In this document: piece by piece, positions 2,269 to 14,435 of the stretch
Numbering within the stretch: position 1 is the first letter of the stretch
Layout of the letters: every line of letters begins with the position of its first letter
The notes under the pieces: model-generated
Database searches by the model: none
What the model was told of the DNA's origin: nothing
The model's input: only the letters and a program-made list of their open reading frames with translations
Made by a program: the position numbers and the translations under genes
From: an uncultured Acidobacteriota bacterium
GTDB taxonomy: Bacteria; Acidobacteriota; Terriglobia; UBA7540
Length of the DNA: 64,000 nucleotides
Direction of reading: 5' to 3'
Assembly (NCBI GenBank): GCA_963842495.1
Contig: CAWJHY010000068.1
Location: 50,179-114,178 of the forward strand

Positions 2269-3291
2269 CTATTGATGAACCGGCTCCACGGCCACCGGTT
2301 TTCGATCTTCGAACTTTCCAAAAATCATCTTGCCCGCGGTGGTTTGCAGCACGCTGGTCACGGCGATATCAATGGTCTTGGAAATCATCCGCTTGGCGTT
2401 ATCCACCACCACCATCGTGCCGTCGTCAAGGTAGGCGACTCCCTGGTTATACTCCTTCCCTTCCTTGAGGATGAACACCCGCATCGCCTCCCCAGGGAGC
2501 ACGACAGGCTTCAAAGCATTGGCCAGTTCGTTAATATTCAGCACCGGCACGCCCTGAAGTTGGGACACCTTGTTCAGGTTGAAGTCGTTGGTAACGATTT
2601 TCGCCTCATACTGCTTGGCCAGCTCGATGAGTTTCATATCCACTTCCCGCATCTGCGGGTAGTCTTCCTCGACAATCTGAACTACGATAGTTCCCATCTT
2701 CTGCATACGTTGCAGAATGTCCAGACCTCGCCGGCCGCGATTGCGCTTCAGTTGGTCGGAAGAGTCAGCCACCAATTGCAGCTCCCGGAGGACGAACTGC
2801 GGGACGATCATTGTCCCGTCAATAAACCCTGTTTCGCAGACGTCGGCCACGCGGCCGTCGATGATGACACTTGTATCCAGTACCTTGAAGTTCCTCCTCG
2901 GTTTCGGCTCGGTGCTGAACAGGCCACCCAGGGCGGAAAGGTTCAGCAGATCACCCTTGTTGGCGCCCAGTACCAATCCGACGTAGGCCATGAGCAGTAG
3001 TAAAGTCACCTCGAGAAAGGAAAGGTTGACTTTCTCGAGTGACGTTACGCTCAACATGTAGCTGATCATGAGCGCCCCGAGAATTCCGAAGATCGATCCC
3101 GCCGCGGCTCCGATCAGGCGTTTGAGGCTGGCCTTCTCCAACCGCATCTCAAAGAAGATGAAAAACAATCCCAGGCAGGCACCCAAGAGAGCGGCAAGAG
3201 GCCTGGACAGGCCGAATGGATGCAGTTGGAATGACGCCACGATGATGATGAATACGAAGATTGTACGAATTCCCGCCATTTCCCAGGTCAT
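2269..3291 (-). CDS. Membrane-anchored PIN/TRAM domain protein (YacL-like)
   Basis: 340-aa ORF. Four N-terminal hydrophobic helices, a PIN-like core ([12 protein letters not shown]) and a C-terminal TRAM-like segment ([26 protein letters not shown]). Confidence 0.85.
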
Positions 3292-3417: not shown

Positions 3418-4779
3418 TTAACGACTCTGGCGCGACTTAATGACGATGGGTGTCCCCAGGAACCCGAATCGCTCGCGAATGCGATTCTCCAGGAACCTTT
3501 CAAACGAGAAGTGGAATTTCCCCGGGCGGTTGGTAAAGGCTACAAAGACAGGCGGGGCGACGCCGCCTTGGGTCAGATAATAGATTCGCGTGGGTCTTCC
3601 GGCCGGAGTGGGAGCCCGCTCCAAGTCCAGCTCTTTCAGGAATTGGTTCATTTCCGACGTAGGCACTCGCAGCTTGCGCGCTTCTGCAACTTGGGCAATC
3701 GTCTTGAGCAGATTACCCAGCCTCTGGCCATGCAGGGCGGAAATGAAGAGGAGGGGCGCGTAATCAAGGAACTTCATCCGCCGCCTTATCGCCCGAACAT
3801 AATCGTTCATGGTCCCCTTTTTAACCAAGTCCCACTTATTGACCACGATGATGACCGAGCGCCGGCTTTCGTGCGCGTACCCCCCGATGTGCGCGTCGAG
3901 GGCTGTAAAGCCCTCCGGTCCGTCGAGCATGAGTAGCGCCACATCAGAGCGCTCCAAGTGCTTACGTGCCTGAATCACGCTCAGCTTCTCTGCCAGCAAA
4001 TTGGTTTTGCCTTTGCGACGGATCCCAGCCGTGTCGATTAGCCGGAAGCGCCGACCATCGCGCTCGAATTCCGCGTCCACGGCGTCCCGCGTGGTGCCGG
4101 GCAGCGGCGAAACGATCGAGCGCTCCTGCTCGAGAAAGCTGTTCAGGAGTGTGGACTTACCCACGTTGGGCCGCCCGATGATGCCCACATTGATGGGTCG
4201 GTCGCCATGCGGCGCCGGGGGCGCCGCAGTCGTCCCGCCGGCCGGTTCGGAGGGCGGGTTGTCAACTCCCTCCTGGGAGGCTGGAAAGCCCTTGGTGACG
4301 TGTTCGAGGAGATCGTCGACGCCCAGCCCATGTTCGGCAGAAAGGGGGAAGATGTCGGGAACCCCCAGGCGGTGGAATTCCCCCGCCAAGGGCGAATGCT
4401 GGGCCATGTCGACCTTATTCACGGCCAGGGCGAGCGGCTTCCCAGAGCGGCGCAACAGATGCACCAGTTCCTCGTCAAGCGGCACGATTCCCTGCCGGGC
4501 GTCCACCACCAGGATGAGCTGGGAGGCTTCTTCAATGGCCACCTGAGCCTGGCGCAGAATCTCAGTGGCAATGAGGTCCTTTTCGAAGGGGATCATTCCC
4601 CCTGTATCGACCACCTCGAACGGCTTTCCCATCCACTCAGCAGGAGCGTAGAGCCGGTCGCGCGTCATGCCCGGCTCGTCTCCCACCAGCGCCCGCCGGT
4701 GACCGCAAATGCGATTGAACAACGTGGATTTGCCCACATTGGGCCGCCCGATGATCGCCACCCGAGGGAGTTGAGGCAC
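3418..4779 (-). CDS. der: Ribosome-associated GTPase Der/EngA
   Basis: 453-aa ORF with two GTPase domains, each with a GRPNVGKST G1 motif, plus a KH-like C-terminus. Confidence 0.95.
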   Translation of the reverse strand: MPQLPRVAIIGRPNVGKSTLFNRICGHRRALVGDEPGMTRDRLYAPAEWMGKPFEVVDTGGMIPFEKDLIATEILRQAQVAIEEASQLILVVDARQGIVPLDEELVHLLRRSGKPLALAVNKVDMAQHSPLAGEFHRLGVPDIFPLSAEHGLGVDDLLEHVTKGFPASQEGVDNPPSEPAGGTTAAPPAPHGDRPINVGIIGRPNVGKSTLLNSFLEQERSIVSPLPGTTRDAVDAEFERDGRRFRLIDTAGIRRKGKTNLLAEKLSVIQARKHLERSDVALLMLDGPEGFTALDAHIGGYAHESRRSVIIVVNKWDLVKKGTMNDYVRAIRRRMKFLDYAPLLFISALHGQRLGNLLKTIAQVAEARKLRVPTSEMNQFLKELDLERAPTPAGRPTRIYYLTQGGVAPPVFVAFTNRPGKFHFSFERFLENRIRERFGFLGTPIVIKSRQSR

Positions 4780-4983
4780 GAGAAAAGTCCAAAGCCGGAA
4801 GTCTGAATTCTAAAGAGTAAAGTCTACCACATTGACCCCCAACTAAACCGTGACCCGTCCCCAGCCCCCTCTGACACCACCCCCGAAGGAGCGACCCAAC
4901 GAAGCACAGGCCAACAGCCTGAACGTAGCTGATTGTGAAATTTGCCCTGTATCACGCGCTCCGGGCGAGCACAACTCCGCCGC

Positions 4984-7419: not shown

Positions 7420-7824
7420 GTGAGGATGACGAGGGGACTTGCATCCGCCCAGGTGGGCCAACGGCCCATGATAACTGCCGCGAGGCCAATTGTGCGCTCT
7501 CGACGATGCGTCCAGGTGAGCCCTCAGATTGTGCCCGAGTAGCCATCCGCGCGGAACCACCTGGCGCCACGTCCGCGTGTACGCCGTCAACTTGACCGCG
7601 TCTGTCCGACTTTCGAGCGGCGCGTGATCCGCTCGAAATGTGCTGGTCAGCCCGTAGCGCAGACCGCCGGGTTTGCGGTGTGGGGATCTTCGTGGACGAG
7701 GGCGACTCGATATTACGACGTGGCACCTGCCAGGGAAAAGACCCGGACCACAGAAGCGGTGGTCCGCGCCACTTGCTGGCCGCCGAGAAACCTGCCAATA
7801 TTTAAGCCCCAGAGGGCTGTTGAT

Positions 7825-7920
7825 TTAGCCCCAACGGGGCGAAATAACGAAGCCCAGGCCGACGGCCTGGGTTTAGATAATCCCCCGATCTTGCCGCCAG
7901 CCCTGAAGGGGCGAGATAGG
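7825..7920 (+). repeat. REP-like unit, family A (forward)
   Basis: Sequence ttagccccaacggggcgaaataacgaagcccaggccgacggcctgggtttagat...cagccctgaaggggcgagata, ending 10 nt before the RAYT-like gene start. Confidence 0.8.
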
Positions 7921-7929
7921 TGTTCCCCC

Positions 7930-8382
7930 ATGCCGCAATCGCTTTCGCAACTCTACGTTCACCTGATCTTCAGCACCAAACATCGCGAGCCGATGTTATT
8001 GTCGCCCCTGCGAGAAGACCTCCACGCCTACCTGGCGGCGGTTCTCAATAACCAGGACTCCCCGACGCTGAAAGTCGGAGGCATGAGCGACCACGTTCAT
8101 GCGCTGTTTCGATTGTCGAAGAACGTCGCGCTGGCAAAAATGGTGGAGGAAGTGAAGACCAGTTCCTCGAAATGGGTCAAGACGCAAGGGCGCGGCTTGG
8201 CCAACTTCCATTGGCAGAGCGGCTACGGCGCGTTTTCGGTGAGCGCGGCGGATGTGGAAGAGGTCGTGGAGTACATCGCGCAACAAGAAAGCCACCACCG
8301 CGTGGTCAGCTTTCAAGAGGAATTCCGGAAGCTCCTGGACGCGCACGGCATTGCCTACGACGAGCGGTACGTGTGGGATTGA
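7930..8382 (+). CDS. IS200/IS605-type Y1 (HUH) transposase, REP-associated (RAYT-like)
   Basis: 150 aa from ATG 7930 (MPQSLSQLYVHLIFSTKHREP). HUH motif in SDHVHALF, then WQSGYGAFSV and ESHHR. Flanked on both sides by family A REP units. The track ORF (7624-8382) has a spurious 5' extension through the REP. Confidence 0.85.
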   Translation: MPQSLSQLYVHLIFSTKHREPMLLSPLREDLHAYLAAVLNNQDSPTLKVGGMSDHVHALFRLSKNVALAKMVEEVKTSSSKWVKTQGRGLANFHWQSGYGAFSVSAADVEEVVEYIAQQESHHRVVSFQEEFRKLLDAHGIAYDERYVWD

Positions 8383-8393
8383 AAAGGATTGTT

Positions 8394-8530
8394 CCGCCCC
8401 TTCAGGGCTCGGGTATCGGTTTGGGTGCGGTTGGCTTAGCCCCAAAGGGGCGAAATAACAAAGCCCAGGCCAACGGCCTGGGTTTAGATTACCCCGCAAT
8501 TTTCACCCCCAGCCCTGAAAGGGCGAGATA
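8394..8530 (+). repeat. REP-like unit, family A (box ccgccccttcagggctcgggt plus forward unit)
   Basis: The box is the inverted partner of cagccctgaaggggcg at 7900-7915. It is followed by ttagccccaaaggggcgaaataacaaagcccaggccaacggcctgggtttagat. Confidence 0.8.
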
Positions 8531-8687: not shown

Positions 8688-8774
8688 CCGCCCCTTCAGG
8701 GCTCGGGTGTCGGTTGGGGTCCCGTTGACCCAGGCCGTTGGCCTGGGCTTCGTTATTTCGCCCCTTTGGGGCTC
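8688..8774 (-). repeat. REP-like unit, family A (box plus reverse unit); left boundary of the low-GC island
   Basis: Sequence ccgccccttcagggctcgggt-N-ccgttgacccaggccgttggcctgggcttcgttatttcgcccctttggggctc. Near-identical organisation and orientation to 13138-13221. Confidence 0.8.
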
Positions 8775-8833
8775 GCCTGCCCACACCTCGAGACGCACCC
8801 TTTCCGGCTCTTGGAGCCTGGCCGCGCAGTCCG

Positions 8834-9658
8834 TCAATCCCGGGCGGGAGCCGAAAGAGACTTAGCCATATCGCCGATCAACCCCGGAACCAATCGCTCC
8901 GCCGCCCCGGCGGCGACGCAAGCTACAAGCAGCGCAAGAAATGGGTGACTCAACCGCTGGGACACTCCGAGTAGAAGATCAGCTTTTATCGCAAGGGCCA
9001 CAAAAAGTGCACCACACACGCCCACTATGGCCCTAGTCGCCCCTTCAACCTTATGAATTCTTGGGCCGGCGACCGGTTCGAAATGGATTGCCTCGGTTCT
9101 GCCGGCGACAGAAAGAAAAGCCCCCAAAGAGCCCATCATCGCCCCGCTAAGCACCTCAAGTGCGCTTCTCCACATTGGGCTAGAGACCGAGTGCCAAATC
9201 ACGAAGAGAATGGCGCCCATAATCAGCGCGCAGAGGGCCGTCGTTGCCGCCCCGGTGAGATACCACACCCGCGCATTTTCGGTTCCACGTGCCCTTAGGT
9301 ATGCTTCGGCCCGGTTGAGCGCTGCCTGTGCCTTCTCCTCGTTGTGGTCGCCGAGTATGCGCGCCATCGCCTCCCCGAGATATCGTTCAAATGGTTCCCG
9401 CTGGGTCTCGTCTAGCTGTGTCAATGATCGCGCTTCGAGGTGTCCTATCAAGTTTGCGGTATCCTCGAAACCTGCGGGTGAATTGCAAGCGAAGGTCCAT
9501 TCAACGCACATATCGTCGTCGAGGTAGATGAGGTAGTCTTTGTCACTGTCGATAAGAGTACGGATTTTCTTGTTTAGCGTGGGATCAACATCGCCCTCAC
9601 AATACGGAGTGTAATCCTCCACTGGTCTGCCCGAGCCCATTCCTGGTTGATCGTTCAT
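8834..9658 (-). CDS. Hypothetical protein: ~130-aa soluble N-domain plus four predicted TM helices
   Basis: 274-aa ORF. Its ATG overlaps the upstream ORF stop (ATGA). Hydrophobic spans at about residues 131-155, 165-186, 207-231 and 238-258. I recognise no family motif. Confidence 0.6.
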   Translation of the reverse strand: MNDQPGMGSGRPVEDYTPYCEGDVDPTLNKKIRTLIDSDKDYLIYLDDDMCVEWTFACNSPAGFEDTANLIGHLEARSLTQLDETQREPFERYLGEAMARILGDHNEEKAQAALNRAEAYLRARGTENARVWYLTGAATTALCALIMGAILFVIWHSVSSPMWRSALEVLSGAMMGSLGAFLSVAGRTEAIHFEPVAGPRIHKVEGATRAIVGVCGALFVALAIKADLLLGVSQRLSHPFLALLVACVAAGAAERLVPGLIGDMAKSLSAPARD

Positions 9659-9846
9659 GGCGGTCCTTTCTGTATCTCAATCATGTACTGATACAAGCGG
9701 TCATCGCAGAGGTATTTGTAGTGCCCCTTGCCTTGGGTTTCACCAAGGCCATCCGTGGAATTAATAAAGGGCAAGGCAATCTCTCGCCGTGTTGCGGCGA
9801 TGACCCATGTGGAATCTTGGTCTACCGAGTGTATATTTCTAACCAC
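9655..9846 (-). CDS. Hypothetical 63-aa protein
   Basis: Its GTG start overlaps the TAG of the upstream gene (TAGTG) and its TGA overlaps the ATG of the downstream gene (ATGA). Support is positional only. Confidence 0.45.
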   Translation of the reverse strand: MVRNIHSVDQDSTWVIAATRREIALPFINSTDGLGETQGKGHYKYLCDDRLYQYMIEIQKGPP

Positions 9847-10880
9847 TAAGTCAGTACGATCTTGGCTGGATTAATGCCCGGTGCGGCCAAAAGTTCTGGG
9901 GTTTCGACTTCATTTAGGGATACCTGTCCGATAGCCACTTTCCCCTGCTCAAAAGCTGATTTTACGGACTGGCCTGCAGCAATCGCCGCGTAAAACTGCG
10001 TTGCAAACGCAACAGCCGCCAAATCACTAACTGAGTCACGCATAACTACGACGATTTTCGCTGGTGGCAACAACGCCTTCCGTGCACCAGCGCTCTTGCA
10101 TGCATTCAGAACAATAATCGCGGGTGGTACATCAGTCGCAGAAGTCGCCTTAGAAAAGAGATCGAATGAAACGGTCTTGACTGGACGCTTTGTAACGCCG
10201 GGGTTGTCAACCGCAACGCCGCCTTTGTAACCATGTCCAGAAAAGTGTACGATCTGAGGCCGGAGGTCATTAAGGCCCTCCATTAGGGAATGCAGATCAG
10301 CCGCTGGGCGATACTCAACAGTGATGTTGTCTCTATATATGGACCCACGAATCTCGGACTGCACCTGCCTGACTTCCGCATCTACTCGAAGCGGATTTTT
10401 GGGGTCGGGATTCGCCGTAAGATACAACACCTTGACGCGTTTCCTCTTGCGTAATGCCTGCCGGGTAATCGTTCTGATTGGTGGGAGCCCCCGCACTTGC
10501 GGCCGGCGTTTCGTCGGAACTCTCTCCGCTAAATTGGGATTGTCCGCATGTTTGATGATTTCCAAGCGGTTTGCTCGAACAGTTGGGTCCTTCTTATAGA
10601 GATACCTACTCCCGTCGTTGACTGAGCCATCGTTGTCCACCCTAACGATGAGATGATGCTGTGTGAGCTGGTCAAGTGCGTTCTGTACTTGCTGGGAATC
10701 TCGATTCGGAATCGCAGCATCCCGCATGATCTGAAGCTTGGATCGTGGCTTAGAACGTCGTCCGTAGATCGTATTGAATGTCTTACGGCGCACCTTGTTC
10801 TTGCCCAGATGCTTCGCCAGCTGCAAAACAGATTCTTCGTGGTCGCCAGAAATATTGACAATCGGCGTACGTTCGACCAT
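9846..10880 (-). CDS. CHAT-like (caspase-fold) domain protein with possible N-terminal winged-helix domain
   Basis: 344-aa ORF. The C-terminal ~190 aa show the short CHAT pattern: KVLYLTANPDPKNPLRVDAEVRQV, IVHFSGHG (His216, codon 10233-10235) and IIVLNACKS (Cys261, codon 10098-10100). A basic linker RKRKR precedes it. The N-terminal ~110 aa are helix-rich (LDQLTQHHLIVRVDNDG...RYLYKK). Confidence 0.7.
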   Translation of the reverse strand: MVERTPIVNISGDHEESVLQLAKHLGKNKVRRKTFNTIYGRRSKPRSKLQIMRDAAIPNRDSQQVQNALDQLTQHHLIVRVDNDGSVNDGSRYLYKKDPTVRANRLEIIKHADNPNLAERVPTKRRPQVRGLPPIRTITRQALRKRKRVKVLYLTANPDPKNPLRVDAEVRQVQSEIRGSIYRDNITVEYRPAADLHSLMEGLNDLRPQIVHFSGHGYKGGVAVDNPGVTKRPVKTVSFDLFSKATSATDVPPAIIVLNACKSAGARKALLPPAKIVVVMRDSVSDLAAVAFATQFYAAIAAGQSVKSAFEQGKVAIGQVSLNEVETPELLAAPGINPAKIVLT

Positions 10881-10886
10881 CGTCTC

Positions 10887-11060
10887 TTAACCCTTCTTCG
10901 CAGATAATTTCGGAACCATGCGGCTGATAGTCGGTTGACTTAGACCAAGCACTCGGGCGAGTTGAGCCTGTGAATAGCCCTTGTCAAACAATTCGAGGAT
11001 TCGAAGCTTTCGAAGCATTTCGAGCTCTTTAATAATCTGATCAGCTTGCTCGTTCGTCAT
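10887..11060 (-). CDS. Small HTH protein (57 aa), below the ORF-track cutoff
   Basis: Hand translation: MTNEQADQIIKELEMLRKLRILELFDKGYSQAQLARVLGLSQPTISRMVPKLSAKKG*. GGAGG lies 5 nt upstream of the ATG. The stop is 7 nt before the CHAT-like gene start. Confidence 0.6.
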   Translation of the reverse strand: MTNEQADQIIKELEMLRKLRILELFDKGYSQAQLARVLGLSQPTISRMVPKLSAKKG

Positions 11061-11134
11061 TTATTCCTCCGCGCCCGCTCCTGTCTCCTTTGTCAAGCCT
11101 TTCGGCATCATGAGGCTCCCTGAGGTCCGGTGCT

Positions 11135-11389
11135 TCATTTCACTTTTTTCTCACGGAGCTTTGCCCTAATCCGTGCGAGTTCTGATCCGCCGGCGACTGG
11201 CGACCTCCTGACGATTCTGGCAATGGAAGTCTACCCAAGCCCCGCAGCGTCACGTAATCGAATCTGATCCCGCAGGCCTCTCGGGTTCTCCGGACTGGGA
11301 AGCGCAACAACAAGCAGGGCAATTATGGCGTCAAGGCGCTTGGTTATCTCAAGAACGTCATTCTTGTCAATCGTCCTATCCTCGATTTC
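11135..11389 (-). pseudogene. Decayed paralogue of the 81-aa HTH gene (no start codon, internal TAG at 11231-11233)
   Basis: Hand translation: EIEDRTIDKNDVLEITKRLDAIIALLVVALPSPENPRGLRDQIRLRDAAGLG*TSIARIVRRSPVAGGSELARIRAKLREKKVK*. It aligns with IGIDRKLGVIIALLSRLKPAGDELSTMREQIETLSGLGMRPMEIAGILGRS... of 11866-12111. Confidence 0.4.
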
Positions 11390-11659
11390 TTAATCAACAG
11401 TCTTTTGGTAAGACTTACCCACCTTTACAAGTAGTCCAGCTTCCTCCCATGACTGCCAAATGGTTGAGATTTTCCATGTTGATACCTTGACCTTTTTTGC
11501 GATTTTGACAATCGAAGTGTCTTTGCCCGTGAGTTCCCAGATTTCGCGCAGCATTTTGTCAGCGCGAATTTCCGCCAATGCATGAGACACAGCAGCTCTC
11601 AACAAGCCTCTTAAGAGCTGTTCGATCCTAAGGAGAATTTCGTTGGCGTTTTCGTTCAT
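11390..11659 (-). CDS. Small helical/HTH-like protein (89 aa)
   Basis: Start taken at MNENANEILLRIEQLL (ATG 11659). The C-terminus TSIVKIAKKVKVSTWKISTIWQSWEEAGLLVKVGKSY looks winged-helix-like. The track ORF extends to 11824. Confidence 0.5.
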   Translation of the reverse strand: MNENANEILLRIEQLLRGLLRAAVSHALAEIRADKMLREIWELTGKDTSIVKIAKKVKVSTWKISTIWQSWEEAGLLVKVGKSYQKTVD

Positions 11660-11714
11660 GCCTGCACCTTTCTCAAGGGAGTAAGTGGTCGGCTCAATTT
11701 CGACCGGCGCACTA

Positions 11715-11888
11715 TTACTTGCTTTTTTTGATGTGCCGAGCGATGCGACTGACCCGCGCCATGTCAACCCCGACAATCTCCCTAATCCGGGGTTGGGGCA
11801 CGCCAGCTCTTGCCAACTCGACAATCAACAAATCTTGCACCAGCCCGACTAATTTGTCGGAGCTTTCAGCCTTCTTTTGCCTGCTCAT
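11715..11888 (-). CDS. Small HTH protein (57 aa), below the ORF-track cutoff
   Basis: Hand translation: MSRQKKAESSDKLVGLVQDLLIVELARAGVPQPRIREIVGVDMARVSRIARHIKKSK*. It overlaps the 3' end of the upstream gene by 23 nt. Same size and architecture as 10887-11060. Confidence 0.5.
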   Translation of the reverse strand: MSRQKKAESSDKLVGLVQDLLIVELARAGVPQPRIREIVGVDMARVSRIARHIKKSK

Positions 11889-12111
11889 TTTTCAATCCCC
11901 GCTTGCGTAGTCCGACAAGCTCCTTATTCACATACCCTTGTGACCTACCCAAAATTCCTGCTATTTCCATCGGCCTCATCCCCAAGCCGCTCAGCGTTTC
12001 TATCTGCTCGCGCATAGTCGAAAGCTCGTCGCCCGCGGGCTTGAGCCGAGAGAGCAGAGCGATGATCACTCCCAGTTTCCTATCTATGCCGATCAAGATC
12101 TCGTCGTCCAT
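11866..12111 (-). CDS. Small HTH protein (81 aa from MDDEILIG)
   Basis: The C-terminal GMRPMEIAGILGRSQGYVNKELVGLRKRG resembles a sigma-70 region-4/LuxR-type HTH. The track ORF starts at a TTG at 12159. TATAAT-like sequence lies upstream at about 12185. Confidence 0.5.
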   Translation of the reverse strand: MDDEILIGIDRKLGVIIALLSRLKPAGDELSTMREQIETLSGLGMRPMEIAGILGRSQGYVNKELVGLRKRGLKNEQAKEG

Positions 12112-12950
12112 CCAGTCCCCATTTCTGCGTAGTTCGCTAAATATTCGCCTTCCAGGCAAAAGGGTAAACTCATATTACCTGAGATTATTATAATGCACGA
12201 TTCCCCTGGCACGGTCAAGCAGTTTCGTTTCATCCAACAAGAACTGGCAAGAACTCCGTTTCCAATCCTGTTCCGCCCTGGCAGAGCTCAATCCGAGGGT
12301 ATTCCATTCACATTTCTTCCATGTCTCGTTAATCCTATTGCAGCTAAAGAAGATATATTGAAGAACCTTCGGTGATCGACAGTCCAAGGAGTCTTTCGAA
12401 AACTCCATCGCCAGCCGCCGAGACCCGGAAGGCGACTTTTCTGACCCTAAAGACCCAACCCAACCTGCCCAGCTTAGTTTTTGGCACGACGGGGCCGTCC
12501 AAGGCAAAGAACTCATATTTCGCATATCATACATCATGGGTAGTTAAATCTTGGAGGATCCGATAAAAGAGTACGAAGGTCGTACAACTGAACTACCTAT
12601 TTTGTTCGCCAATACACTTACTCTTAGTATGATACATAAGCTAAGTATGGCAATTGTGCGTGTCTATCGATTCTGCGAGGTCTGGATATTCTGACTACTC
12701 AAGTTTATTATGATGCATTTGCAACTTGACCGCCGTGAATTCTCACCTTGCCAAACAAGAATTGGCAAGAATTCCGTTTCCGGTCCCATAACGCTCTAGC
12801 AGAAACATGCTCAAACACTGTCAATTCCAGGCGGCACAGACTTTGGCCTGGATATCGGAACACGGGGACACGCAATACCATATTTCCAATTTACCGACAT
12901 CAAAGCTTCCGCCGCCTCCCACTACAGACTAGGGATTGGGAATTAGGGTC

Positions 12951-13031
12951 CTGTAACCACCCCGGCGGGAAGCCGCCGACTCCTCCCGAATTCTGTAACC
13001 AGCCCTCGGCGGGAACGCGCCGTCCCCCTCC
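12951..13031 (+). repeat. Two tandem ~38-nt hairpin units (ctgtaacca-ccc-cggcgggaaNccgccg-cctcc)
   Basis: Units at 12951-12986 and 12993-13031. Unit 1 carries the perfect cggcgg/ccgccg stem; unit 2 has a degenerate version (cggcgg-gaacg-cgccg). Confidence 0.6.
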
Positions 13032-13137
13032 TAAATCAGGAGAGGAGTCCGTCCGCCCTGGCAGCCTGTGACGCGGAGCGTCGGCCGGTTTTCCTCTGTG
13101 CCTCCGCGGTGAAGGTTGGTCTGGGGGATTGGGTAGG

Positions 13138-13221
13138 TCGCCCTTTCAGGGCTCGGGTCGATGGGGTTCCGTTGACCCAGGCCGTTGGCCTGGGCTTTGT
13201 TAGATCGCCCCTTTGGGGCTC
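13138..13221 (-). repeat. REP-like unit, family A (box plus reverse unit); right boundary of the low-GC island
   Basis: Sequence gtcgccctttcagggctcgggt-N-ccgttgacccaggccgttggcctgggctttgttagatcgcccctttggggctc. Same orientation as 8688-8774. Confidence 0.8.
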
Positions 13222-13508
13222 AACGCCAACGACGGACTTTGCGCGCCTGGGCTTCGTCCACGCGACGCTTCGTTTCCTTTTGAAAGGCGGCACGAAAGCC
13301 GTCGTAGCCCGGAGCTAAACAATCCACTTGGCCTTGAAACGCCCGTCCCGGCGATGTGCCGGCTCGTGGTTCCGGGCGTGTCGGCGACTCGGACGTAACC
13401 TGAGTGTGCGGCTGGACGTATGTCGGCAAGCCGTACATGTGGTCCATGTGTCGTCTCTTACGTTCAAGCGTGGATCACGCGACACTCGGAGATTGGACAA
13501 AGGCAGTC

Positions 13509-13578
13509 GGGAAGAGGGAATAGGGAACAGGGAAGAGGGAAGAGGGGAGAGGGAACAGTTTATCTCAGCGGCGCGGCG
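13509..13578 (+). repeat. Purine-rich GGGAA-type repeat plus tatctcagcggcgc motif (upstream flank of the TA pair)
   Basis: Shares the exact 21-mer tagggaacagggaagagggaa with 14500-14520. Confidence 0.7.
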
Positions 13579-13623
13579 AAATTAACTCAGAGACTCCGAG
13601 CAGATTCCGGCTATACTAGTTGC

Positions 13624-13941
13624 ATGGAGATTAGGGTGCAATTGCCGGAAGACGTGGCCAAGCATCTCGCGGCGCGGTGGCAGGACCTGCCGCGCGCGGC
13701 GCTGGAGAGTTTGGCGCTCGAGGGCTACCGGTCAGGAGCGCTAACGCAGTCGCAAGTGCGCCGCATGCTGGGCTTGCAGACGCGCATGGAAGTGGACGGG
13801 TTCCTGAAGGAGCACGGCGTGAACCTGGAATACACGGTGGAAGACCTGGACCGTGAAGCCGCCAGCAGCCGGCCAGTCTGGGAGCGCCGGCAGGTCGAGT
13901 TGGCAAGCGAAACTAAGGAAGAAGACCGCCGGGCCGGATGA
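13624..13941 (+). CDS. UPF0175-family antitoxin
   Basis: 105 aa from MEIRVQLPEDVAKHL. LALEGYRSGALTQSQVRRMLGL...EVDGFLKEHGV is typical of UPF0175. ATGA overlap with the downstream toxin gene. Confidence 0.8.
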   Translation: MEIRVQLPEDVAKHLAARWQDLPRAALESLALEGYRSGALTQSQVRRMLGLQTRMEVDGFLKEHGVNLEYTVEDLDREAASSRPVWERRQVELASETKEEDRRAG

Positions 13942-14435
13942 TCGTCATTGCGGACACCACGCCGCTTAATTATCTCGTCCTCATCGACCAATCCAATTTG
14001 CTGCCCCGCCTCTATGGGCGCGTGTTGATCCCGCCCGCCGTTTATAAGGAACTCCAGGCGGAGGGCACGCCCGCTTCCGTGCGAGATTGGGCCGTCCACC
14101 GCCCCACATGGCTCGAAGTGAGGCCGCCATTCCTCCCGCTGGATATAGGGCACGGCGCACTCGACGCGGGTGAATGCGAAGCCATCGCCTTAGCCCTGGA
14201 GCTGAGGGCGGATCTTCTGATTCTGGATGATAGGGATGCGCGGCTTGAAGCCGCCCGCCGCAACCTCATGGTTATTGGCACGCTCCGAGTGCTCGAAGAT
14301 GCCGCTCAACTTGGGCTGATCGATCTGCCGCATGCCTTGCAGAGGCTCCAGCAGACAACATTTCGCGCTTCCGCAAAACTCCTCCAGGCGATGTTGGACC
14401 GCGATGAAGTAAGAAGGAAGAAACACCAACCGTGA
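13938..14435 (+). CDS. DUF3368 (PIN-like) toxin
   Basis: 165-aa ORF with IADTTPLNYLVLI, LDAGECEAIALA and LLILDDRDAR motifs. This is the usual partner of UPF0175 antitoxins. Confidence 0.85.
   Translation: MIVIADTTPLNYLVLIDQSNLLPRLYGRVLIPPAVYKELQAEGTPASVRDWAVHRPTWLEVRPPFLPLDIGHGALDAGECEAIALALELRADLLILDDRDARLEAARRNLMVIGTLRVLEDAAQLGLIDLPHALQRLQQTTFRASAKLLQAMLDRDEVRRKKHQP

Follow-up and report, generated by a model that had tools for sequence, protein, structure and literature searches.

A compact HTH-CHAT protease cassette with an optional four-helix membrane protein is a probable undescribed defense-type system in an Acidobacteriota genome

We analyzed a gene cluster within a 64,000-nucleotide stretch of DNA (hereafter the window) from an uncultured Acidobacteriota bacterium (contig CAWJHY010000068.1, positions 50,179 to 114,178). 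An earlier reading of the letters alone, here called the original prediction, had proposed four co-directional minus-strand genes as a candidate conflict system: a 57-amino-acid (57-aa) helix-turn-helix (HTH) protein, a 344-aa CHAT-like caspase-fold protein, a 63-aa open reading frame (ORF) and a 274-aa protein with four transmembrane (TM) helices. An ORF check of the window found all four, each on the minus strand and at the expected position. The lower-GC island in which they had been placed is also real, with a GC content of 0.48-0.54 across ~9000-13000 as against ~0.60 in the flanks. The window sequence is reliable here because an independent short-read contig (L088; related loci are referred to by such numbers throughout) is 100% identical to window positions 8751-13137. 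The core of the locus is a row of small HTH proteins followed by the 344-aa protease (CHAT344), and the 274-aa membrane protein (TM274) is an optional add-on; the 4.4-kb low-GC island, bounded by repetitive extragenic palindromic (REP)-like repeats, holds a composite of these two unnamed modules. The locus is probably an undescribed defense-type system.

CHAT344 (9846..10880, minus strand) comprises a winged-helix-like domain (residues ~14-120), a basic linker (~121-148) and a compact CHAT caspase-fold protease with the dyad H216/C261. Its Pfam CHAT match (PF12770, clan CD) has E=1.3e-13 and 51.5 bits, compared with a cut-off of 24, and a profile built from 34 CHAT344 homologues matches the SAVED-CHAT structure 8tl0 with E=5.8e-21 and 26% identity. 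In this alignment H216 (HFSGHG) and C261 (LNACKS) fall on the corresponding residues of HFIGHG and LNAC in 8tl0, and the 47-residue spacing of the aligned His and Cys is that of the 8tl0 dyad H375/C422, mutation of which abolishes SAVED-CHAT activity (Steens et al., bioRxiv 10.1101/2023.06.23.546230; PDB 8tl0). Both residues are invariant across the 34 homologues. A Foldseek search with the AlphaFold2 (AF2) model returned 8tl0 first (E=5e-11), followed by caspase-11, -4 and -1, separase, MALT1 and metacaspase, with probabilities of ~1.0. CHAT344 is a true member of the CHAT/caspase-fold family with its catalytic dyad in register, and the dyad alignment predicts a catalytically intact protease. 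The compact C-terminal module with His216 and Cys261 had been proposed from motifs, and Pfam, profile, Foldseek and alignment results now agree on it. The overall pLDDT of the model is 78.8; the linker is modelled at low confidence, and the N-terminal domain is modelled as helix-helix-helix-helix-beta-hairpin at a pLDDT of ~90, a predicted fold consistent with the winged helix that the original prediction had considered possible, next to the basic linker that it had also described. CHAT344 has more than 940 homologues, among them at least 120 full-length proteins (~344 aa) that share 58% identity or more with it; their sources are Acidobacteriota and Alphaproteobacteria, one being Bradyrhizobium sp. 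USDA 4011.

Directly upstream of CHAT344 lies HTH57 (10887..11060, minus strand; 57 aa), whose assignment as an HTH protein was upheld by a Pfam HTH_23 match above the cut-off (E=2.9e-7). The GGAGG ribosome-binding site noted before its ATG is present, and 6 nt, rather than the 7 nt first counted, separate its stop codon from the CHAT344 ATG. HTH57 is 84-91% identical in L006, L019 and L080-L084, is far better conserved than CHAT344 and stands directly upstream of CHAT344 in L076-L084; the HTH-CHAT junction was kept in every relative examined, with a tightly coupled stop and start. The conserved unit in every context examined (L076-L084) is a ~2.2-kb row of small HTH proteins, A-B-C-D, with CHAT344 as the last gene. 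Gene A (~105 aa) encodes a weakly MarR-like winged HTH (wHTH) protein, with weak MarR_2 matches among the relatives; B (~71 aa) is an HTH protein; C (~60 aa, sometimes duplicated) is an HTH paralogue of D; D (57 aa, HTH) is HTH57; and the last gene encodes the ~344-aa wHTH-CHAT protease. This cassette was found in Acidobacteriota and Alphaproteobacteria, usually without a TM gene. Its flanking genes differ from genome to genome, in unrelated chromosomal contexts, and the ~2.2-kb cassette is therefore self-contained. Insertion sequence (IS) elements are often nearby, with IS200/Y1 transposases and repeats adjoining it in the window, L006, L080 and L083. The HTH-CHAT344 unit is a compact mobile cassette in which the association of CHAT344 with small HTH proteins is obligatory. 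Of the coupled four-gene operon that had been proposed, three genes are real and the HTH-CHAT junction is conserved, but the four genes are not the conserved unit: the TM gene is missing from the CHAT344 homologues in L076-L081, and the conserved cassette extends to additional small HTH genes on the upstream side (11135-12159).

The cassette has been rearranged in the window. Nucleotide homology to all relatives begins abruptly at a sharp mosaic breakpoint at ~11118; downstream of it, D and the CHAT and TM genes are 77-92% identical to the relatives at the DNA level, and upstream of it no nucleotide homology is seen. The genes beyond this point are again on the minus strand. They begin with a degenerate, HTH-like copy of gene B (11135..11389), which lacks a canonical start, contains an in-frame TAG at 11231-11233 and gives a frame-0 translation resembling the B proteins of relatives. 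Sequencing error as the cause of this stop codon was rejected, given the 100% identity of the independent assembly L088, and since that assembly confirms the degenerate B gene, the window cassette may be partly decayed. Next comes a divergent homologue of gene A (11390..11767; MarR-like wHTH), which probably starts at the ATG at 11659, with the gene caller for L088 placing the start at 11767; it is 33% identical to the A genes of L006 and L081 (tblastn, E=8e-7 to 1e-4) and has a weak HTH_47 match in Pfam. A small HTH-like protein, X (57 aa; 11715..11888), was confirmed as an ORF and is called as a gene on L088; it has weak Trp_repressor and HTH_23 matches and matches a transcriptional regulator, phrog_6831, with E=0.006. 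The first gene of this divergent module encodes a 97-aa homologue of B with a helix and an HTH (11866..12159; also called on L088), 31-34% identical to the B genes of L080-L084 (tblastn, E ~2e-5), and a promoter-like site lies near it at 12218-12190. Compared with L083, D, CHAT and TM are ~86-92% identical and A and B only ~30% identical as proteins; the upstream HTH genes are therefore regarded as an exchangeable module, and the sequence comparison suggests that modular exchange took place at ~11118.

Between CHAT344 and TM274 lies a spacer (9659..9845, minus strand) that holds the 63-aa ORF (9655-9846) and a weak terminator-like hairpin (9788-9770). The stop-start overlaps that had been reported, TAGTG between CHAT344 and the 63-aa ORF and ATGA between the 63-aa ORF and TM274, are present in the sequence. 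Substitutions in the ORF relative to its relatives are nevertheless spread evenly over the three codon positions (20/14/19, 15/15/19 and 21/18/21), in contrast to the third-position excess in CHAT344 (25/24/87) and TM274 (10/12/40). The homologous frame has no canonical start codon in L019 and L083/84, it is broken in L006 by stop codons and by indels that are not multiples of three, and in L082 only 70 nt separate the CHAT and TM genes. Because it shows no codon-position bias, because start and frame are not kept in relatives and because the L082 spacer leaves no room for it, the 63-aa ORF was rejected as a gene; the proposed adaptor or inhibitor is an ORF that arose by chance in non-coding DNA. 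This spacer of ~190 nt (window 9659-9845) is itself ~75% conserved in four relatives (L019 1285-1605, L083 3509-3818 and L006 5700-6000 among them), where it holds ~100-120 extra nucleotides, and is missing from L082. A structured RNA was considered here and rejected, with no Rfam match within the spacer and no covariation support from RNAalifold (covariation term +1.5).

TM274 (8834..9658, minus strand) carries an acidic beta/alpha head (residues ~1-130) followed by four TM helices and represents the accessory, putative effector module; its ATG is preceded by an AAAGGA ribosome-binding site. Hydrophobic segments at ~131-155, 166-185, 204-226 and 237-258 and the AF2 model (pLDDT 89.4, pTM 0.79) bear out the ~130-aa soluble head and four hydrophobic helices described in the original prediction. 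In the model, a three-stranded sheet and two helices lead into a 50-residue helix that runs into the first of the four hydrophobic helices, and conserved glycines and the polar residues R187, H202, E205, R209, K225, E254 and R255 lie in or between the helices. TM274 was rejected as a member of a known family, with no match in Pfam (none at E<=1), PADLOC, NCBIfam or PHROGs, no significant Foldseek match in the PDB (best E=0.31) and no tblastn match on plasmids. An exhaustive profile search nonetheless returned 3955 representative clusters, formed at 50% identity, at E<=1e-3 and 469 at E<=1e-30. Members are mostly 260-300 aa long, and the N-terminal extensions of longer ones contained no Pfam domains. 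A search for homologues of the head only gave 4 matches, few candidates sharing exact words with the query. In L014/L052 (446-1855) a SET methyltransferase domain is fused to the N-terminus of a TM-family protein, and a separate SET-like protein with an NHSCDPN motif is encoded just downstream of the TM gene in L046 (1571-2116).

We retrieved 75 TM-family loci from the subfamily nearest the window, and gene calls in part of these loci come from an ORF scan. Only the window, L006, L019, L082 and L083/84, a narrow clade, have a TM gene after CHAT344, and the same-strand order of CHAT and then TM is kept in five relatives. The TM gene is missing beside the CHAT344 relatives in L080 (72% identity), L081 (77%) and L076-L079 (59-67%). 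The conserved synteny of CHAT344, the 63-aa ORF and TM274 that the original prediction called for is not seen, the 63-aa ORF not being a gene and the TM gene being absent from L076-L081. In the L081 cassette, an unrelated acidic 207-aa protein without a Pfam match (4344-4967) occupies the position of TM274 and may be an alternative partner.

In six separate lineages the gene for a caspase-fold protease lies next to a TM-family gene. Besides those of the CHAT344 clade, the proteases are a 646-aa CHAT protein in a prophage-like region (L005), a 938-aa CHAT-TPR protein whose stop codon overlaps the TM start (L028), a CHAT protein convergent with the TM gene (L035), a Peptidase_C14 protein 58 nt upstream of the TM gene (L015) and a Peptidase_C14 protein divergent to it (L013). 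In a blind Pfam census of 75 non-redundant immediate neighbors at 53 loci, no family except CHAT occurred more than once. This recurrence supports a functional link of TM-family proteins with proteases of the caspase fold, and the association is facultative but non-random. Most TM-family genes have no adjoining protease. A second recurring partner set, confined to one lineage, is formed by a weakly GNAT-like protein of 154-189 aa encoded ~120-160 nt upstream of the TM gene in L030, L031, L032, L044, L045, L049, L060, L070 and L072, with a conserved 100-aa protein further upstream in five of these nine loci.

Domain swaps within the family bear on what its two halves might do. The head (residues 7-127, 52-53% identical) also occurs in L016, L064 and L066, but there it precedes a TIR_2 domain and not the TM helices, and these head-TIR_2 proteins are encoded near an Eco57I-like methylase, STAND-like AAA_16 proteins and other TIR proteins. 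In L001 (Bacteroidota) the TM gene is part of a defense island that also encodes a type I restriction enzyme, a Pycsar-type TIR protein, RmuC and an AAA_15/21 ATPase. That TIR can take the place of the TM helices, together with these defense contexts, suggests that the head is a regulatory domain and the C-terminal half an effector slot. Short CHAT proteins related to CHAT344 also occur on plasmids in conflict-type clusters. One of these, on the Agrobacterium plasmid pTiCFBP5877 (L085, 51835-60515), encodes a 308-aa wHTH protein, three CHAT proteins (564, 361 and 632 aa), a metallophosphoesterase, two TIR proteins and a caspase-family protein, and looks like an uncharacterized conflict island related to the short-CHAT subfamily.

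The two edges of the island are marked by plus-strand copies of the Acido-Lenti-1 element (RF01687), at 8729..8773 (Rfam 40.2 bits) and at 13176..13220 (38.1 bits), both above the gathering score of 37. A third copy of this small RNA (sRNA) motif above the gathering threshold lies at 8438-8482 on the minus strand, and the ends of contig L088, at 8751 and 13137, fall exactly at the two copies that bracket the island. The copies adjoin an ORF for an IS200/Y1 transposase resembling REP-associated tyrosine transposases (RAYTs) at 7624-8382 (plus strand), and L006 has many Acido-Lenti-1 copies beside two Y1 transposase genes. Because the copies bracket the island and adjoin such transposases, Acido-Lenti-1 may be a REP-like repeat tied to a RAYT rather than an sRNA. 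Beyond the island, the window flanks encode a Der GTPase, IspD, oxidoreductases, one toxin-antitoxin-like pair and the IS200-like transposase, and a larger defense island around the locus was not found there. Just outside the island, at 13420-14435 (plus strand), a UPF0175 gene (E=4.5e-17) and a DUF3368 (PIN-like) gene, joined by a stop-start overlap, look like a toxin-antitoxin pair. A 340-aa PIN-domain protein is encoded at 2269-3291 (minus strand), between the IspD and Der GTPase genes, in a second lower-GC stretch (0.52-0.57).

The locus is best described as a variation on the protease-plus-membrane-effector theme, built from uncharacterized parts. Our preferred reading, to which we assign a probability of roughly 45%, is that of a protease-centered conflict cassette with an optional membrane effector, in which an HTH-restrained CHAT344 would also unleash TM274 where it is present. 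The HTH proteins would repress the cassette and restrain or inform the protease, and a trigger, probably phage or foreign DNA, would activate CHAT344. The activated protease might then degrade cellular or invader proteins promiscuously, as the proteases of type IV Thoeris and of the PCaspase cascade do; promiscuous caspase-like effectors of this kind are known (10.1101/2024.10.24.620036; 10.1101/2023.06.23.546230). Where TM274 is present, CHAT344 would in addition act on its head, in the way that C14 and CHAT proteases act on bacterial gasdermins, and this action on the head would free the four-helix module, so that the membrane is permeabilized and the infection aborted. In cassettes that lack TM274, the effector would be the protease itself. 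A bolder form of this proposal, which we consider doubtful, would see in the TM274 family immune effectors of a new class, which disrupt membranes under regulation, with the head taking proteolysis by a neighboring caspase-fold protease or another signal as input, and in the multi-HTH/wHTH-CHAT cassette a new stand-alone defense system with a DNA-tethered caspase-like protease as sensor-effector.

Several observations weigh against the preferred reading. TM274 is absent from 6 of the 11 sampled CHAT344 cassettes, and most sampled TM-family loci are solitary, with unrelated and often housekeeping neighbors, among them POR, RecG, ribosomal protein S1, acyl-CoA dehydrogenase, an epimerase and a TonB receptor. 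The TM loci were fetched by one peptide pattern, which makes the sample one of the window's nearest subfamily only. No cleavage motif conserved specifically in the protease-linked TM proteins was found. The CHAT and TM genes are parted by a spacer of 70-320 nt with a terminator-like hairpin, the window cassette is partly degenerate (a stop codon in B and no C), and the window lies outside a classical defense island, with the Der GTPase, IspD, oxidoreductase and toxin-antitoxin-like genes described above in its flanks.

Much of this could be accommodated if two independent mobile modules, each acting alone, had landed together in a REP/RAYT-rich insertion hotspot, with no link between protease and membrane protein. 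The mostly solitary TM-family genes in varied contexts, the majority of CHAT344 cassettes that end without a TM gene, the variable spacer with its hairpin, the separate ribosome-binding site of TM274 and the transposases and repeats that adjoin the cassette in the window, L006, L080 and L083 all fit such a history. We nevertheless think it somewhat unlikely, in view of the unrelated lineages, six in number, in which caspase-fold proteases flank the TM family, the standing of CHAT as the sole recurrent neighbor family, the order of CHAT and TM on the same strand in five relatives and the overlap of the CHAT stop with the TM start in L028.

Two further explanations accept a link between the protease and its neighbors and assign the roles differently. 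ImmA/ImmR and CapP/CapH are protease/repressor switches, and by analogy CHAT344 might cleave one or more of the HTH repressors upon stress or infection and thereby de-repress the operon, including TM274 where present, as a regulator rather than an effector. The four to five DNA-binding proteins in the cassette, the wHTH of the protease itself, the conservation of HTH57 far above that of the protease and the tight coupling of the D stop and CHAT start in all loci would suit a switch of this type. Most cassettes, however, lack a downstream effector gene to regulate, and the HTH-less C14 and TPR-CHAT proteases beside the TM family would be left unexplained, which makes this account improbable. 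Still harder to credit, in our view, is that TM274 might be a membrane sensor that activates the protease, as proposed for EACC1, and not a downstream effector. Kaur et al. 2020 (PMC7159879) do predict a membrane sensor upstream of a caspase, and the TM helices of the family carry conserved small-residue and polar positions. Yet behind the same head the TM helices can be replaced by TIR, a classical effector, which points to the C-terminal half as the place of the effector; the TM gene is situated 3' of the protease gene, and for most of the family there is no protease that a sensor could activate.

Bacterial and animal cell death are linked by caspase-like proteases that set off membrane effectors. 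If the preferred reading of a protease-centered cassette with an optional membrane effector is right, the C14/CHAT proteases would have a second, structurally unrelated membrane partner, implying that this logic evolved more than once, and a function would be provided for thousands of unannotated proteins of soil bacteria in the TM274 family. A winged-helix, DNA-tethered protease accompanied by four small DNA-binding proteins would be an activation mode not described for bacterial caspase-like proteases, and may be new. Since the HTH-CHAT cassette is ~2.2 kb long, self-contained and widespread, including in cultured Bradyrhizobium, it can be cloned and tested.

Comparison with known systems was consistent with the claim that the locus has no name. 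Neither PADLOC-DB v2.0.0, NCBIfam, Pfam nor PHROGs gave a match to a catalogued system, and we found no description of the HTH-CHAT cassette or of the TM274 family in the literature. As had been expected for PADLOC, only generic HTH matches (Csa3, CasR) and a partial SAVED_CHAT match limited to CHAT344 residues 188-312 (E=8.5e-6) were returned, and nothing for TM274 and the other small proteins. The stated absence of a cyclase or cas gene nearby also held among the flanking ORFs. Identities as gasdermin, Craspase, SAVED-CHAT, EACC1-caspase and type IV Thoeris systems were each rejected, as at least one defining feature is missing in every case.

The resemblance to gasdermin systems lies in the arrangement. 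Bacterial gasdermins adjoin C14 or CHAT proteases, with 43 of 50 having a protease neighbor, and are activated by cleavage (Johnson et al., bioRxiv 10.1101/2021.06.07.447441). Here, too, a caspase-fold protease gene lies directly beside that of a ~270-aa protein whose predicted site of action is the membrane, C14 and CHAT types both occur among the partner proteases, some with TPR, and the islands are compact. Unlike gasdermins, TM274 is alpha-helical, with four TM helices and a beta/alpha head; it has no gasdermin beta-sheet fold and no Foldseek match in the PDB, and only a minority of its family has a protease neighbor. The protease also differs in carrying a wHTH domain and in being preceded by several HTH genes. 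The closest solved CHAT relative is the SAVED-CHAT protease of type III-B CRISPR (8tl0), with the catalytic His and Cys aligned. The N-terminal domain of CHAT344, however, is winged-helix-like in its predicted fold and is neither SAVED nor, as in the TPR-CHAT of Craspase, TPR; a cyclase, Cas10, cas genes and the downstream PCaspase or sigma-factor module of SAVED-CHAT are all absent.

The EACC1-caspase systems (Kaur et al. 2020, PMC7159879) are likewise predicted conflict systems that combine a caspase-superfamily protease and a small membrane protein. EACC1 has a single TM helix and is encoded 5' of the protease, where the genes studied here encode soluble HTH proteins, and its caspase is N-terminal to a variable effector domain, whereas the CHAT domain of CHAT344 is C-terminal; the NCBIfam model caspase_w_EACC1 gave 11.3 bits compared with a cut-off of 140 (E=0.17). 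Type IV Thoeris pairs a TIR protein with a caspase-like protease (Rousset et al., bioRxiv 10.1101/2024.10.24.620036). This protease is a promiscuous effector, a mode of action that, by analogy, would be plausible for the CHAT344 cassettes without TM274. Unlike in type IV Thoeris, no TIR gene is present among the island ORFs or in the core cassettes of L076-L084. In CBASS and Pycsar, effectors alternate between TM helices and a TIR domain. The TM274 family differs from them in that no cyclase is present and its head matches no PADLOC, Pfam or NCBIfam model, and it resembles them in that one N-terminal regulatory domain is joined to either TM helices or TIR.

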